DNA from: a virus
Lineage: Duplodnaviria; Heunggongvirae; Uroviricota; Caudoviricetes
DNA: 5,321 nucleotides
IMG/VR virus record: IMGVR_UViG_2706794691_000017
Direction: 5' to 3' (one strand)
Shown here piece after piece: positions 1-5,321 of this stretch. The notes beneath the pieces are model-generated. The model had not been told where the DNA came from. It worked only from the letters and a program-made list of their open reading frames with translations, and ran no database searches. Numbering within the stretch: position 1 is the first letter of the stretch; every line of letters starts with the position of its first letter. Made by a program: the position numbers and the translations under genes.

Positions 1-1083
1 ATGAAAAAATTAACAGTGGCAATTTCTGCTGTAGCTGCATCAGTACTGATGGCGATGTCTGCTCAGGCAGCTGAAATTTATAATAAAGACAGTAACAAGC
101 TGGATCTGTACGGGAAAGTTAATGCTAAGCACTACTTCTCCTCTAATGATGCAGATGATGGTGATACTACTTATGCCCGTCTTGGCTTCAAAGGTGAAAC
201 CCAAATCAACGATCAACTGACTGGTTTCGGTCAGTGGGAATATGAATTCAAAGGCAACCGCGCTGAATCTCAAGGTTCCTCCAAAGATAAAACCCGTCTT
301 GCCTTCGCTGGCCTGAAATTCGGTGACTACGGCTCCATCGATTACGGCCGTAACTACGGTGTAGCATACGACATCGGTGCGTGGACTGACGTCCTGCCAG
401 AATTCGGTGGTGACACTTGGACTCAAACAGATGTGTTCATGACTGGTCGCACCACTGGTGTTGCAACTTATCGTAACAACGACTTCTTTGGTCTGGTTGA
501 TGGTCTGAACTTTGCTGCTCAGTATCAGGGTAAAAATGACCGCACTGACGTAACTGAAGCTAATGGTGATGGTTTCGGTTTCTCCACTACTTATGAGTAT
601 GAAGGATTCGGTGTAGGTGCAACCTATGCTAAATCTGACCGCACTAATAATCAGGTTATCTACGGTAACAACAGCCTGAATGCATCTGGTCAAAATGCTG
701 AAGTATGGGCAGCTGGTCTGAAATATGATGCGAACAACATCTATCTGGCTACCACCTATTCTGAAACCCAGAACATGACTGTTTTTGGTAATAACCATAT
801 TGCCAACAAAGCACAAAACTTCGAAGTAGTTGCACAATATCAGTTCGACTTCGGTCTGCGTCCGTCCGTTGCTTACCTGCAATCTAAAGGAAAAGACTTG
901 GGTGCGTGGGGTGATCAGGACCTGGTTGAATATATTGATGTAGGTGCAACCTATTACTTCAACAAAAATATGTCCACTTTTGTTGATTACAAAATCAACC
1001 TGATTGATAAGAGCGATTTCACGAAAGCATCTGGCGTTGCTACCGATGATATCGTTGCTGTAGGTATGGTTTACCAGTTCTAA
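1..1083 (+). CDS. nmpC: Outer membrane general porin, NmpC/Lc/OmpD-like (OmpC/OmpF/PhoE family), apparently intact
   Basis: 360-aa ORF with a classic Sec signal peptide ([30 protein letters not shown]), porin-typical Gly/Tyr/Asp-rich beta-strand composition, and the C-terminal aromatic residue (..VYQF) needed for outer-membrane insertion. The protein matches my recollection of E. coli NmpC. Lies convergent to the phage Q gene, as in DLP12. Confidence 0.9.
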
Positions 1084-1099
1084 TTTGATTACTAAAAGA

Positions 1100-1133
1100 T
1101 ATGTTGCGGGAGGCTTTGCCTCCCCAACATATA
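1100..1133 (-). terminator. GC-rich imperfect hairpin with a U-tract on the minus-strand side; candidate terminator for minus-strand (Q/late) transcripts, possibly tR'-like
   Basis: Arms gttgcgggaggc (1103-1114) and gcctccccaac (1118-1128) with a ttt loop. On the minus strand the hairpin is followed by AUAUCUUUUAGU. On the plus strand it is not followed by a T-run. Confidence 0.4.
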
Positions 1134-1154
1134 AGTGGCTCCCTCAAGCCACTT
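1133..1154. repeat. Perfect 8-bp inverted repeat (aagtggct / agccactt) with 6-nt loop; stem-loop of unknown role
   Basis: Read directly: aagtggct ccctca agccactt. No clear U-tract on either side. Confidence 0.35.
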
Positions 1155-1220
1155 CCTTTAGGAGCACAACCTTGCTTCTAACTATATAAACCTTCTGTTA
1201 TATATTACCCTTTATTTTTG

Positions 1221-1254
1221 GGGGCGTTGCAACGCCCCATTTTTAATAATTTTT
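1221..1254 (+). terminator. Rho-independent terminator, plus-strand orientation (likely terminates nmpC transcript)
   Basis: Perfect palindrome ggggcgttgcaacgcccc (1221-1238) immediately followed by atttttaataattttt. On the minus strand the same hairpin is followed by an A-run, so it is unidirectional. Confidence 0.55.
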
Positions 1255-1271
1255 AGTAAACAATTGGCATA

Positions 1272-1655
1272 TTAATTAGAGTTATTAACAACGATATCCA
1301 TCTCTAACCGGATATCTAATGCCATTAACATCCCTTCAATTATGCCCTCAGCCTTCTGTAACCTTTTCCCGATATAACCATCAGAGCAGCAATGCTTACC
1401 TGCCAGTGACATGAATGTCATACCGACTACATAATAATCTACTAATAAATCGTGCAAATCGCTGTTGTTCTTTTTCAGACGGGCCATGCACCCGCAAATA
1501 ATCATCGCGTCATCGTCACAACATTGCGGGCGAGATTTTACTTTTGAAGTAATTAATCCCTTAAAACCGGCGGCAATGGACGACCAGGTCACATCTTCAT
1601 GATTATTAGCCGCCCACGCTCCCCAACGCTCAAGAACCATCTGAATATCACGCAT
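1272..1655 (-). CDS. quuD: Late-gene antiterminator Q, phage 82 / QuuD type
   Basis: Translation [26 protein letters not shown]...[16 protein letters not shown]...DIVVNNSN matches my recollection of DLP12 QuuD (127 aa), with Cys-rich putative zinc-binding motifs. ATG at 1655 is preceded by GGAG with 7-nt spacing. The ORF track's 1670 start is an upstream in-frame TTG, which I consider less likely. Confidence 0.85.
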
Positions 1656-1740
1656 CAACTTACTCCACAAAAATCAGACCAGAACGCCAATTACAAGCAA
1701 AAATCAACAAAACAGTATTAGTTGATTGTTATCTCTGACT

Positions 1741-1881
1741 TCATACTCCTGCTCCTGTCAGGGTTTTGGCGTAATTCTTCAGTATTCGGTAATCGGTCAA
1801 AACAGAACCGGGGAAACGATATAAGCGCAGATGCCCCCAGCGGTGGCGAAGAAGTTCTGCCATATAAAACTCAAACATCAT
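1741..1881 (-). CDS. ylcG: Small protein, ylcG-like (46 aa), overlapping the rusA stop
   Basis: Manual translation of the minus strand gives [46 protein letters not shown]. It sits in the rusA-to-Q position that ylcG occupies in DLP12. Below the length cutoff of the supplied ORF track. Start could alternatively be the ATG at 1878 or 1863. Confidence 0.5.
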
Positions 1882-2240
1882 TCATTCCCCATTTCGGTGA
1901 TGGTCAGTTCCAGCCTCCCACCTTTGGTAACAGGCATCTTCACAACGCGGTAATCAACGACCTGAGCATCATCCAGCCAGAAACCTGCTTTGGTGAGTGC
2001 GTCAAAAGCGGCTTTTTGCAGATTATCCAGGTCACGGCGACGGCGATCCGGCATGTGGCACTCAATACGGATTTTCACTGGCATAGCCAGGCCGATATCC
2101 AGCATTGCGTTTTTAATGATTCGGGTGACGTTATCGCGGTATGCCTGCCCTTCTGCGCTGATGTGTGTGCGCCCGCGATTATGGCGGTAATAGCGGTTAT
2201 TGCTCGGAGGCCAGGGTAATGTGATGCTGTAGGTATTCAC
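1878..2240 (-). CDS. rusA: Holliday-junction resolvase RusA (crossover junction endodeoxyribonuclease)
   Basis: 120-aa translation [38 protein letters not shown]...[11 protein letters not shown] matches my recollection of RusA. GTG start overlaps the ybcO stop (GTGA). Confidence 0.9.
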
Positions 2241-2527
2241 GCCTTAATAACCCCCTCTTTCAGCCAGATAACCTGCGTTCTCGCCATACCTTCCAGCGCG
2301 CATTCTTTTGCATACTCAGCATCGACAAAATATGTGCGGCGGTCGATTTCGTCGTGACAGGCAGAACATGCAATGGTGGCAATCAGGTCTGGCGGTTTGA
2401 TACCGGTACCGCACAATCCAGCCAGCCGGATATGTGCCAGTACTGACGTTTCAGGATTGCCATTACATACGCCAGGGATTCTTACCTGGCATTCCCGACC
2501 ACGCGCTGCTTTTCTCAAATCAGCCAT
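2237..2527 (-). CDS. ybcO: YbcO-family protein (DUF1364; Cys-rich putative nuclease/zinc-binding protein of the nin region)
   Basis: 96-aa product [42 protein letters not shown]...[11 protein letters not shown].., starting at the ATG at 2527 with a strong upstream SD (AAGGAGGA). The ORF-track start at 2566 is an upstream in-frame ATG lacking an SD. Start overlaps the ninE stop (ATGGCTGA). Confidence 0.8.
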
Positions 2528-2690
2528 GATTCCTCCTTGCTGCCAGTCGCAACCATTTTTTATCAACCAGGCTAGCGGTATATCCGAGCAGTGTTGGTAT
2601 TTCGGATGGCTTCAGCTCAGGCTTACGCTTACGACGATTTGATACTCTGTAGATGTGCCCGTTCATGACACGAATAAGCGGTGTAGCCAT
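2520..2690 (-). CDS. ninE: NinE-family protein (56 aa)
   Basis: Manual translation [59 protein letters not shown] overlaps the ybcN stop (TAATG) and the stop overlaps the ybcO start. Below the ORF-track length cutoff. Confidence 0.75.
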   Translation of the reverse strand: MATPLIRVMNGHIYRVSNRRKRKPELKPSEIPTLLGYTASLVDKKWLRLAARRNHG

Positions 2691-3145
2691 TACGCCTCCT
2701 GCTTATCGCGCAGCTGCTGGTATTCACAGCTCTGCGGAATTGTCAGGTGGCAGCCGATATTCATCGCCCAGGCTTCGACTTTGCACAGGAAGATGTACAT
2801 CTCGCCGGTTTCCAGCTCTGACGTATGGCGGAGGGATTGGACGGTGGTGACCTCGCCGGACACGACATCTACACGGTCTTTGCTTTCGTAGCCGAGATAG
2901 GTGTGCTTCATCGCGTCTTTGACCCACTCAGGCGTAGCGAAGGTCTTGCCGCGGGCGATGAGATATTCGCTGATCTCCGTGTACCACATGTGGCTGAGCG
3001 CGTTCTGCGACAGGCTGCGCTTCTCGCGCCACGGCTTAACCTGCAGGCGTAAGCATTGCCCGGCATCCAGCAATGGCTGAATCTGCTGGCCGATGGCCGC
3101 GAAGTTACCGCGATGGAGTTTGATGCCGTCTACTGGCAGAGTCAT
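2690..3145 (-). CDS. ybcN: YbcN-family prophage protein (nin-region; reported base-flipping DNA-binding protein in E. coli)
   Basis: 151-aa ORF MTLPVDGIKLHRGNFAAIGQQIQPLLDAGQCLRLQVKPWREKRSLSQNALSHMWYTEISEYL.. matches my recollection of DLP12 YbcN. SD GGGAGG upstream. ATG overlaps the stop of the upstream small ORF (ATGA). Confidence 0.85.
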   Translation of the reverse strand: MTLPVDGIKLHRGNFAAIGQQIQPLLDAGQCLRLQVKPWREKRSLSQNALSHMWYTEISEYLIARGKTFATPEWVKDAMKHTYLGYESKDRVDVVSGEVTTVQSLRHTSELETGEMYIFLCKVEAWAMNIGCHLTIPQSCEYQQLRDKQEA

Positions 3146-3237
3146 ACGGCCTCCCTAACGGAAACCGCAGAATGCAGAAAATCGCAGGTGCATTTCTGCA
3201 TCTGTGACAAGGTGATGAGTTCAGATTGTGGTCGCAT
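3142..3237 (-). CDS. ylcH: Small ORF (31 aa), ylcH-like, translationally coupled to ybcN
   Basis: Manual translation MRPQSELITLSQMQKCTCDFLHSAVSVREAV*. Preceded by an in-frame stop and an AGGGGA SD-like sequence. TGA overlaps the ybcN ATG. Identity as ylcH is from synteny and recollection only. Confidence 0.4.
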   Translation of the reverse strand: MRPQSELITLSQMQKCTCDFLHSAVSVREAV

Positions 3238-3365
3238 TTAAGTCCCCTTAAATGCGCAGAAGTCACCGGAGTTGTTCAGGCTCCGATGAGAGGATTATGG
3301 CGGATTGATTACGATAAATCAAAACTATCTTGAAGCCAAAACAGTGATCTTCGCTTTAAAAACCT

Positions 3366-3373
3366 TGTATACT
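3366..3373 (+). promoter_or_regulatory. Candidate extended -10 element (TG + TATACT) upstream of the AT-rich cassette; no convincing -35
   Basis: Sequence ttgTATACT lies about 37 nt upstream of the ATG at 3410. A TTGAAG at 3330-3335 is too far away (about 32 nt) to serve as its -35. Sequence-gazing only. Confidence 0.25.
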
Positions 3374-3409
3374 TTCACCTAATCACAGCCAGAACTATGG
3401 ATCTAACCA

Positions 3410-3787
3410 ATGACCAACAAAGAAAACAAAGATAAATATATTAACAAGTTCAAGAAAGAGCTTTCAAAATATATACAACCAACTGCTGGAGTGGACATTC
3501 AATTATTTAACTCTAAGGATGGTGGTGGTGTAATTAAAGCCACTTTGAATAGAAGTGGAAAAAGAAAATCATCTATTGCTGGTAATTTTACTAAATTAGG
3601 TGAGGCAATTACCTCGAGTGGGCAGAGGGTTTTTGGTGGTGATCTATCAAATGTGAATTTTTACGGAACAAATACGATTTTTGATGGAGATACAATATTT
3701 TTAATTAAATCACCTGATTCAGAGGAGTGGTCATCACAAAAAGCTTCCAAAGACGTAGAGGGCATCGTATTTGGAGGGAAAAAATGA
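3410..3787 (+). CDS. Hypothetical protein, 125 aa, hydrophilic, Gly/Lys/Ser-rich, no signal peptide or TM segment; unassigned family (cassette gene A)
   Basis: Long uninterrupted ORF in a strongly AT-rich context. Product MTNKENKDKYINKFKKELSKYIQ...GGDLSNVNFYGTNTIFDGDTIFLIKSPDSEEW...GIVFGGKK. Weak or absent SD. I do not recognise the family. Confidence 0.6.
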   Translation: MTNKENKDKYINKFKKELSKYIQPTAGVDIQLFNSKDGGGVIKATLNRSGKRKSSIAGNFTKLGEAITSSGQRVFGGDLSNVNFYGTNTIFDGDTIFLIKSPDSEEWSSQKASKDVEGIVFGGKK

Positions 3788-3869
3788 TTAACATTACTAC
3801 TAAGGATGCACTCAAGTCAGTGGTGAAGTAAGAGATCTAGTAATTCTTCTTGAAACTGATGGAAAAACG

Positions 3870-4211
3870 GTGTCTGATTATTTGCAGCCAATCCCTCCCA
3901 AAAAAGATACACACTGGAGCATGATTTTCATTCCGGTAGCAATTTATATACTACTTAATCTTGTATACATTATTGCTCACCCATTATTTCCTGAAAAATA
4001 TCTAAAAACATCAACATCTATATTTCTATTCATTTCCTTCATATTAAGTGCAATAGTAGCATATTTTGTTTTCCATAAGCATAAATCTGCCACTCTATCC
4101 ATATGCAGCTTAGTGTTCTTAGTGTTAATTGTAGGTGCTAACGTAGGGTTTATCAGTTACAGCGACCTAACACAAAAAGCGACGCAAAAATTAGATAGTT
4201 TGTCTAAATAA
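3870..4211 (+). CDS. Hypothetical small integral membrane protein, 113 aa, about 3 predicted TM helices; unassigned family (cassette gene B)
   Basis: GTG start at 3870 (an internal ATG at 3918 is an alternative). Hydrophobic stretches WSMIFIPVAIYILLNLVYIIA, TSIFLFISFILSAIVAYFVF and LSICSLVFLVLIVGANVGFI are separated by short charged loops (PEKYLK, HKHKSAT). AT-rich codon usage matches gene A. Confidence 0.6.
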   Translation: MSDYLQPIPPKKDTHWSMIFIPVAIYILLNLVYIIAHPLFPEKYLKTSTSIFLFISFILSAIVAYFVFHKHKSATLSICSLVFLVLIVGANVGFISYSDLTQKATQKLDSLSK

Positions 4212-4218
4212 TTATGTT

Positions 4219-4266
4219 GCCATGCGAAGTATGCATGGCTGCATGTCTGCCTTCCATTTAAAATGG
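4219..4266 (+). other. Inverted repeats downstream of cassette gene B (gccatgc..gcatggc stem; palindrome ccatttaaaatgg); possible weak terminator or site
   Basis: 7-bp stem at 4219-4225 / 4233-4239 with 7-nt loop, and a 13-bp palindrome at 4254-4266. No strong U-tract. Confidence 0.2.
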
Positions 4267-4318
4267 GCTAAGACCTATAACCCTAAATATTATTCTTTAT
4301 TATCTTCTTTACCACTTC

Positions 4319-4341
4319 GGTGATGCTGCCAACTTACTGAT
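4319..4341 (+). repeat. IS1 left terminal inverted repeat (IRL)
   Basis: GGTGATGCTGCCAACTTACTGAT, imperfect inverted match to 5064-5086. Confidence 0.85.
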
Positions 4342-4373
4342 TTAGTGTATGATGGTGTTTTTGAGGTGCTCCA

Positions 4374-4577
4374 GTGGCTTCTGTTTCTATCAGCTGTCCC
4401 TCCTGTTCAGCTACTGACGGGGTGGTGCGTAACGGCAAAAGCACTGCCGGACATCAGCGCTATCTCTGCTCTCACTGCCGTAAAACATGGCAACTGCAGT
4501 TCACTTACACCGCTTCTCAACCCGGTACGCACCAGAAAATCATTGATATTGTCAGCGCCAGTGATATAAGACGGTAA
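4374..4577 (+). CDS. insA: IS1 InsA, C-terminally truncated variant (66 aa; canonical InsA is 91 aa)
   Basis: GTG start. [58 protein letters not shown] matches the InsA zinc-finger N-terminus, then diverges (IVSASDIRR*) and stops at the TAA at 4575-4577, upstream of the slippery site. Confidence 0.7.
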
Positions 4578-4585
4578 TTCGCCAT

Positions 4586-5071
4586 TTGGATTGTCCGCTC
4601 CACCCAACAGATTTTACGTCACTTAAAAAACTCAGGCCGCAGTCGGTAACCTCGCGCATACAGCCGGGCAGTGACGTCATCGTCTGCGCGGAAATGGACG
4701 AACAGTGGGGCTATGTCGGGGCTAAATCGCGCCAGCGCTGGCTGTTTTACGCGTATGACAGTCTCCGGAAGACGGTTGTTGCGCACGTATTCGGTGAACG
4801 CACTATGGCGACGCTGGGGCGTCTTATGAGCCTGCTGTCACCCTTTGACGTGGTGATATGGATGACGGATGGCTGGCCGCTGTATGAATCCCGCCTGAAG
4901 GGAAAGCTGCACGTAATCAGCAAGCGATATACGCAGCGAATTGAGCGGCATAACCTGAATCTGAGGCAGCACCTGGCACGGCTGGGACGGAAGTCGCTGT
5001 CGTTCTCAAAATCGGTGGAGCTGCATGACAAAGTCATCGGGCATTATCTGAACATAAAACACTATCAATAA
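4586..5071 (+). CDS. insB: IS1 InsB reading frame (transposase catalytic part); N-terminus differs from canonical
   Basis: From ..[50 protein letters not shown]... to ..HYLNIKHYQ* matches InsB. The first 8 residues (MDCPLHPT) come from the divergent block. Confidence 0.75.
4623..4631 (+). promoter_or_regulatory. IS1 programmed -1 ribosomal frameshift motif (TTAAAAAAC) that normally produces the InsAB' transposase
   Basis: Motif read directly, in the conserved position relative to insB. The upstream insA frame is interrupted by a stop in this copy. Confidence 0.6.
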
Positions 5072-5086
5072 GTTGGAGTCATTACC
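5064..5086 (-). repeat. IS1 right terminal inverted repeat (IRR)
   Basis: Reverse complement GGTAATGACTCCAACTTATTGAT. Confidence 0.85.
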
Positions 5087-5321
5087 GTGCGATGGCATAT
5101 TTTATGTTGTCATTAATGATTTCAATAATATGTGGAAGGTGATGGAATTTCAGCAACAGATCTATTGCCTCTTGTTGCTCTGAATCATTTAAATCGAAAA
5201 ACCAGTCACCACCGCTGGCAAGCCACATATTTCCATCGCCAGTTTCGAATGCATCCAACGCCATCGCTTCGTGGTTGCCTTTAACCGACGTAAACCAGGG
5301 GTGGTTTAGCAGGCGCAGCAC
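5082..5321 (-). pseudogene. Lambda-type Ser/Thr protein phosphatase (metallophosphoesterase, NinI/PPase-like), 3'-truncated at the IS1 junction; 5' end beyond window
   Basis: Translation ..HPWFTSVKGNHEAMALDAFETGDGNMWLASGGDWFFDLNDSEQQEAIDLLLKFHHLPHIIEIINDNIKYAIA aligns with the lambda PPase region FPWFRAVRGNHEQMM...GGGWFFNLDYD...LPLIIELVSKDKKYVI, including the GNHE motif. The ORF then runs into the IS1 right end (junction 5086/5087), where a stop (5082-5084) occurs. The expected C-terminal third is absent. Confidence 0.75.

Follow-up and report, generated by a model that had tools for sequence, protein, structure and literature searches.

An IS1-type element between a prophage remnant and pphB in a Shigella sonnei draft record: a probable false join through a repeated sequence

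The window, by which we mean the whole 5,321-nucleotide stretch analysed here (IMG/VR record IMGVR_UViG_2706794691_000017, Caudoviricetes), consists of five parts: a porin gene, a group of prophage genes, a cassette, an IS1-type element and a phosphatase fragment (Table 1). It matches positions 476-5796 of CWUL01000003.1 at 100% identity. This 68.5 kb record belongs to a short-read draft of Shigella sonnei (GCA_001261395.1), and the window contains no N. Shigella sonnei is also the annotated host of three products encoded here: the truncated 67-residue InsA, the 79-residue PphB fragment and the frameshifted cassette ORF. Among complete E. coli genomes, none carries more than positions 1-4319 of the window in one place. 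The two junctions of the IS1 element were sought in 5426 complete E. coli genomes, where neither occurs; only independent IS1 insertions elsewhere in pphB were recovered.

Table 1. Features of the 5,321-nt window.
Feature	Position	Strand	Remark
ompC-like porin gene	1-1083	+	
quuD, ylcG, rusA, ybcO, ninE and ybcN/NinB-like gene (late-regulatory and nin-type genes of a DLP12-like lambdoid prophage)	1272-3145	-	
AT-rich two-ORF cassette (moron)	3410-4211	+	same cassette in E. coli ETEC1731
Gene P 3' remnant (lambda P family)	4290-4318	-	intact P in L001, 10291-11004
IS1-type element, 768 bp	4319-5086	+	
IS1 nt 1-231 (IRL 4319-4341 and 5' part of insA)	4319-4549	+	P-locus arm; 100% identity to CP022457
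IS21 first 60 nt (left terminal repeat region)	4550-4609	+	from alignments; 100% to IS21 of CP022457
IS1 nt 292-768 (insB' region, IRR 5064-5086)	4610-5086	+	G658, consensus or pphB-locus type
Chromosomal pphB (prpB) fragment, codons 62-139 in the window	5087-5321	-	mutS beyond the window

Between the convergent porin and quuD genes, the interval 1100-1240 contains two G+C-rich hairpins, gcgggaggctttgcctccc and, ahead of a run of T, ggggcgttgcaacgcccc, which resemble intrinsic terminators. In S. sonnei, the 4.7-kb prophage remnant that extends from the porin to the cassette is flanked by two IS1 copies of the same orientation. The upstream copy (L006 4470-5237) lies 390 nt to the left of window position 1 and is a simple insertion flanked by CCAATTTT. 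This two-IS1 bracket resembles a composite transposon and offers a substrate for deletions.

The initial annotation had taken the AT-rich cassette as the left neighbour of IS1. This assignment did not hold. Comparison with E. coli ETEC1731, where gene P comes next, places the P stop codon at 4290-4292, and the DNA that abuts the left end of IS1 is the last 29 nt of gene P, comprising 2 nt, eight codons (SGKEDNKE) and the stop. Alignment with intact related prophages, which had been proposed as a way to define what was lost at this site, showed homology up to 4319 and then the continuation into P. Rightward of 4318, the intact relatives contain P, O and the immunity region and no phosphatase; there is none between P and ybcN either.

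The cassette has a GC content of 34% (3410-4289). ORF1 occupies 3410-3787 and ORF2 starts at 3784. Compared to the intact 142-residue ORF of E. coli prophages, ORF2 is frameshifted by the loss of one G after 3807 (GG to G). A Pfam search with the cassette ORFs returned no family over the cut-off. The intact 142-residue ORF2 protein gives a weak, sub-threshold match to a 7TM-type family and is probably a membrane protein. The 113-residue frameshifted remnant is annotated in S. sonnei only. In ETEC1731, the cassette with intact ORF2 sits between ybcN and an intact P and is free of IS1. Since the same cassette is found at the same place in IS1-free prophages, IS1 is unrelated to its fixation, contrary to what had been suggested, and the cassette is not part of the IS1 event.

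On the right side, the phosphatase ORF (minus strand, 5321 to 5082) enters the right inverted repeat of IS1 and keeps the PphB residues up to 139 of 218. The last 79 residues are missing; the first reading of the sequence had noted the loss of a C-terminal part. The same reading had called this gene a lambda-type phosphatase. The family was correctly recognized, but the gene does not belong to a prophage. Over its 235 nt, the flank matches E. coli pphB at 99.6% identity in 228 genomes; mutS lies directly next to the fragment in the source contig, and the flank is annotated as serine/threonine-specific protein phosphatase 2 [Shigella sonnei]. Of 5426 complete E. coli genomes, 5169 have the gene, as a single copy located between mutS and ygbI. 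Judged by this identity and by the synteny with mutS, the flank is PphB/PrpB, a chromosomal core gene of the lambda-phosphatase family. A lambdoid nin-region phosphatase (orf221 type, located between the replication genes and Q) was considered and rejected, because the flank is the pphB found between mutS and ygbI. Full-length PphB homologues contain the metallophosphoesterase domain PF00149; the 79-residue fragment alone gave no Pfam match.

The pphB gene of S. sonnei carries a second lesion just to the right of the window end, where the codon for L34 is changed to a stop (L008 5876-5881). Since pphB is inactivated twice, by this stop and by the IS1 cut, only a 79-residue ORF with a GTG start is called. 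In other E. coli lineages, pphB has been struck independently by IS1 at several other positions (matches H86-H93). Two truncated PphB proteins that read into an IS1 end, P0033 after ...HHLP and P0018 after ...EYQFG, are of this kind. The gene may be a hot spot for IS1, or it may be dispensable. A homologue search with full-length PphB, aimed at a C-terminal fragment beside an IS1 in S. sonnei, gave other truncations (P0018, P0033) and unrelated fragments only; because the cluster of the full-length protein absorbs fragments, C-terminal pieces are invisible to this search.

All of the pphB contigs that we read (24/24) end within 125 nt of IS1. In other drafts, the contig containing pphB, mutS and hyp has a length of about 63.2 kb and ends 103-125 nt into IS1. 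Exact-pattern scans found no match to the junction of IRR and pphB in species-representative genomes, and none to GTGCGATGG followed by IRL in metagenome contigs; no reciprocal junction for GTGCGATGG came to light in these sets. The supplementary tables of a published S. sonnei study (PMC7373316) list no pphB insertion; mutS and the sigma-factor gene appear in them as locus tags only. In the annotation of strain 53G, 12 locus tags separate mutS (RS16790) from the sigma-factor gene (RS16850). This spacing fits, indirectly, an undisturbed mutS-pphB-rpoS neighbourhood in 53G and hence a simple insertion into pphB. We infer that pphB::IS1 in the real chromosome is a simple insertion with a duplication of GTGCGATGG.

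Intact IS1 has a length of about 768 bp, ends in inverted repeats of about 23 bp, encodes InsA (zinc ribbon and helix-turn-helix) followed by InsB' (DDE), from which frameshifting makes the transposase, and generates a target duplication of 8-9 bp. The element in the window measures 768 bp and carries canonical, imperfect repeats of about 23 bp at both ends (GGTGATGCTGCCAACTTACTGAT and ATCAATAAGTTGGAGTCATTACC). The coding layout of insA and insB' is disturbed: the element retains the InsA N-terminal domain and DDE_Tnp_IS1, while the InsA C-terminal domain is covered at only 17 of 46 positions, and insA is truncated to 67 codons by a foreign block described below. The initial report of a missing target duplication was borne out for the sequence as given. 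The outer 9-mers, TACCACTTC (4310-4318) and GTGCGATGG (5087-5095), share 2 of 9 positions, no more than chance predicts, and no direct repeat of 8-9 bp was found around IS1 when shifts within 20 nt were allowed. Both control copies carry a duplication: 9 bp (TGAATAGAA) for an IS1 that has inserted in the E. coli CV839-06 cassette, and 8 bp for the copy upstream of the S. sonnei porin. Unrelated flanks rule out a simple IS1 insertion, and IS1-IS1 recombination is the only sensible biological route to them.

The element is a hybrid. Nucleotides 4550-4609 of the window are IS21 nt 1-60 and replace IS1 nt 232-291 base for base, so that the element remains 768 bp long. Aligned with IS1A, these 60 columns show random-level identity and zero gaps. 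The same 60 nt match, at 100%, the left end of a 2130-bp IS21 inserted at the same IS1 position in the finished S. sonnei sequence CP022457. A full IS21 is about 2.1 kb long, contains istA and istB, has multiple terminal repeats and is flanked by a duplication of 4-5 bp; in the window only nt 1-60 are present. The alternatives of a diverged allele of IS1 and of an IS1 segment in reversed or complemented form were rejected, since the block has the sequence of IS21. The right edge of the block shows no microhomology. A deletion of IS21 through the shared motif CAACA (IS21 nt 56-60, IS1 nt 286-290) was also considered; the two copies are one base out of register, so that this event predicts CCCAACACGATT and an element of 769 bp. 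The window has CCCAACAGATT and 768 bp, and this route was rejected. The 67-residue InsA occurs on six contigs, among which the scaffold CWUL01000003 is the only one without full IS21. Short solo IS21 ends exist in nature: a solitary left-end remnant of about 60 nt is found in the E. coli plasmid NZ_CP134806 (L005 2501-2579), where its neighbours are two truncated genes, one hypothetical and one colicin-like.

Window positions 1-4609 are 100% identical to the finished genome CP022457.1 (L006 5628-10236). Beyond the position equivalent to 4609, CP022457.1 continues through IS21 to its full 2130 bp (istA, istB), followed by ATAT, IS1 nt 232-768 and cscK/cscB. The same order is found in AGRD01000055 (L007), CP104423 (L014), CP151334 (L021) and JBEAAE010000002 (L023), as well as in the scaffolded CP029794 (L020), whose IS21 is interrupted by a gap of N. 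At the same IS1 position, ADUU01000018 (L009), a draft contig of 53G, runs into IS21. In all of the larger or finished assemblies, the right end of the P-locus IS1 abuts cscK/cscB, and in none does it abut pphB. A private SNP also separates the window from these copies: the right arm of the P-locus IS1 carries A658 in six of six large assemblies, and the window carries G658. G658 is also present in a 125-nt IS1 stub on the pphB contig of one draft (L010), the sole stub that reaches nt 658.

Draft assemblies break at this locus. The 113-residue cassette ORF is present in 150 blocks of the collection, and in 148 of these the longest contig that carries it is shorter than 10 kb. Three stand-alone prophage pieces (L026, L027 and L028) end after IS21 nt 63, 78 and 105, and in this they resemble the left part of the window up to 4609. 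In CWTT01000001.1, from a similarly numbered WGS series, the same prophage piece is joined to solA. The join consists of IS1 nt 1-644, a single 'n' (L025 5437) and a complete IS1 (nt 1-768); it is a scaffolder join and not biology. Because this 'n' stands within a record deposited as a contig, such "contigs" are scaffolds joined through repeats.

The IS1 at the P locus of finished S. sonnei genomes marks a genuine end point of a rearrangement. On its right it is flanked by CGCTTGCAG, which lies in the 3' end of cscK, and cscB follows. The same 9 bp recur directly before the IRL of an inverted IS1 located 3.6 kb away, beside the 5' part of cscK (positions of CGCTTGCAG: L006 12848 and 17184; L032 7001-7009). 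When placed on an intact csc locus, the two parts of cscK share exactly these 9 bp. For the P'/cscK junction, the halves of one duplication are found on two IS1 copies, as in reciprocal junctions. A 9-bp cscK duplication that is split over two inverted IS1 copies points to a real inversion of small size that includes cscB. In finished S. sonnei, this IS1 event destroyed cscK, the gene for sucrose kinase. Under a single-inversion model, the rest of gene P should lie near the second IS1; it was not found within 10 kb in the finished genome. Since the other side of the second IS1 is not the rest of P, more than one event must have occurred at the P locus. A split cscK duplication of this type is ordinary for Shigella. 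The initial annotation had proposed recombination between two IS1 copies and a search for a second copy with the matching 9-bp flank. The logic was sound, and such a copy was found for the cscK flank. The partner it implies is cscK/cscB, and not pphB, in every large or finished assembly.

With these structures at hand, we consider it probable that the P'-IS1-pphB' adjacency is a scaffolding or gap-closure chimera of two real IS1 loci. One is the DLP12-like prophage remnant, with an IS1 situated 29 nt from the 3' end of P, carrying a 2.13-kb IS21 (with ATAT) and ending on cscK/cscB at its right side. The other is the chromosomal pseudogene pphB beside mutS, which another IS1 interrupts after codon 139. 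Most drafts end the contig of the first locus 60-105 nt into IS21 and that of the second 103-125 nt into IS1; in the present record, the two appear to have been set end to end. Read pairs from the many IS1 copies would link the left part of IS1 on the first contig to the right part on the second at natural spacing. The implied gap of about zero would then leave the 60-nt IS21 overhang in the register of IS1. The structures in other assemblies, the in-register block, the SNP difference and the sibling join through an 'n' are observed; how exactly the scaffolder behaved is our reconstruction. The size of the source record, 68.5 kb, equals the 63.2 kb pphB contig plus the 5.3-kb piece, and the adjacency is seen in this one short-read scaffold only. 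With flanks from two different insertions, the missing target duplication becomes trivial. Short-insert read pairs cannot span a 768-bp IS1 or a 2.9-kb IS1::IS21; the record therefore holds no valid evidence for the adjacency. SSPACE and GapFiller are greedy and prone to false joins according to the authors of one such widely used pipeline (PMC5320598), and S. sonnei reference chromosomes contain hundreds of IS copies, most of them IS1 (PMC7373316). A false join makes predictions for reads of the isolate. No read should contain the window junction CCACCCAACA directly followed by GATTTTACG, and none should contain CCACCCAACAGATTTTACG. Instead, reads that continue into CCCAACATGTTGTTTCC should have their mates in the cassette, A658-bearing reads should be paired to cscK, and reads with GTGCGATGG followed by GGTGATGCTG should be paired to the 3' part of pphB and to ygbI.

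Some observations weigh against a chimera. The window contains no N, frequent IS-mediated rearrangements between Shigella isolates (PMC8072062) make a strain-specific junction possible, and the G658 arm is expected from a real recombination too. The most serious competitor is a strain-specific IS1-IS1 recombination, by a large inversion or translocation, between the P-locus IS1::IS21 and the pphB IS1. It would give P' followed by the left part of IS1, IS21, the right part of IS1 and pphB', with IS21 collapsed to 60 nt by the assembler. The two flanks do come from far-apart loci and each sits on an IS1 end in the correct orientation, the right arm has the G658 allele of the pphB copy, IS1-IS1 inversions are proven at this locus by the split CGCTTGCAG duplication, and rearrangement rates in Shigella are high (PMC8072062). 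We nevertheless judge it unlikely. A scaffold from pairs too short to cross the IS1::IS21 lends it no valid support, cscK is found at this end in all six larger assemblies, the other draft that ties the same piece to solA through an 'n' demonstrates that such joins arise without real adjacency, and the prior for the specific pair of P and pphB among hundreds of IS copies is low.

That the deposited sequence is physically real as it stands, namely a 768-bp IS1 with an in-register 60-nt IS21 scar that recombined with the pphB IS1 and so joined the prophage remnant to the mutS region, is very unlikely. It would require an IS1 derivative in which an illegitimate deletion of 2134 bp (IS21 nt 61-2130, ATAT and IS1 nt 232-291) left the scar, before recombination with the pphB copy. 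The sequence does read this way, without N, and solo IS21 left ends of about 60 nt do occur elsewhere (NZ_CP134806). To arrive at it, the deletion must have exactly the size of IS21 plus its duplication, start 60 nt off and proceed without any microhomology; the variant is present in no other assembly, and a second event is still needed to reach pphB. We regard this derivative as highly improbable. If true, a real IS21 scar would be a hint that IS21 can be excised in an unusual way that preserves length. Least of all can we credit an IS1-mediated adjacent deletion inside the prophage, in which intramolecular replicative transposition removed the 3' end of the phosphatase gene and neighbouring phage genes. 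IS1 is known to cause adjacent deletions, and the flanks of the element differ. This explanation, put forward by the initial annotation, fails on the position of pphB, which is chromosomal, beside mutS and far from the prophage; on the gene order of intact relatives, which have P, O and the immunity region to the right of 4318; and on the presence of cscK at this end in finished S. sonnei genomes.

The biological weight of the locus is small, since P::IS1::IS21 beside cscK and pphB::IS1 are both ordinary in IS1-rich Shigella; were the pphB join real, it would add one more IS1-IS1 recombination. IS1 expansion, pseudogenes and IS-mediated rearrangement are typical of this genus (PMC7373316; PMC8072062). 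For genome scans, the case illustrates that mismatched IS flanks in a short-read draft are not evidence of rearrangement, and that a foreign block of equal length within a repeat should raise suspicion of a false join. The record would mislead studies of synteny or structural variation around mutS-pphB or the DLP12-like prophage.

Measured against an E. coli IS1A copy, the IS1-type element has three mismatches outside the 60-nt block (>99% identity), the same length of 768 bp, the same repeats and the insA/insB' layout. Unlike IS1A, it has IS21 in place of IS1 nt 232-291, has lost the helix-turn-helix part of InsA and has no flanking duplication. The IS21 of CP022457 is 98.9% identical to the IS21 of the E. 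coli plasmid pVTB432v-2, which likewise sits in an IS1; unlike such a full element, the window contains neither istA nor istB, no right end and no ATAT duplication. The S. sonnei pphB is a pseudogene, with a stop at codon 34 and IS1 after codon 139, unlike pphB of E. coli. With Shigella IS1-IS1 recombination, the P-locus IS1 shares the classic split-duplication signature, but this signature links P' to cscK and not to pphB. With false joins of the SSPACE/GapFiller type, the window shares the abutment of contigs that normally end inside IS1 or IS21, and the sibling record shows a single-'n' join of the same piece to another partner. Unlike that sibling join, the window keeps no N, and a pipeline of this type was presumably used for its record.
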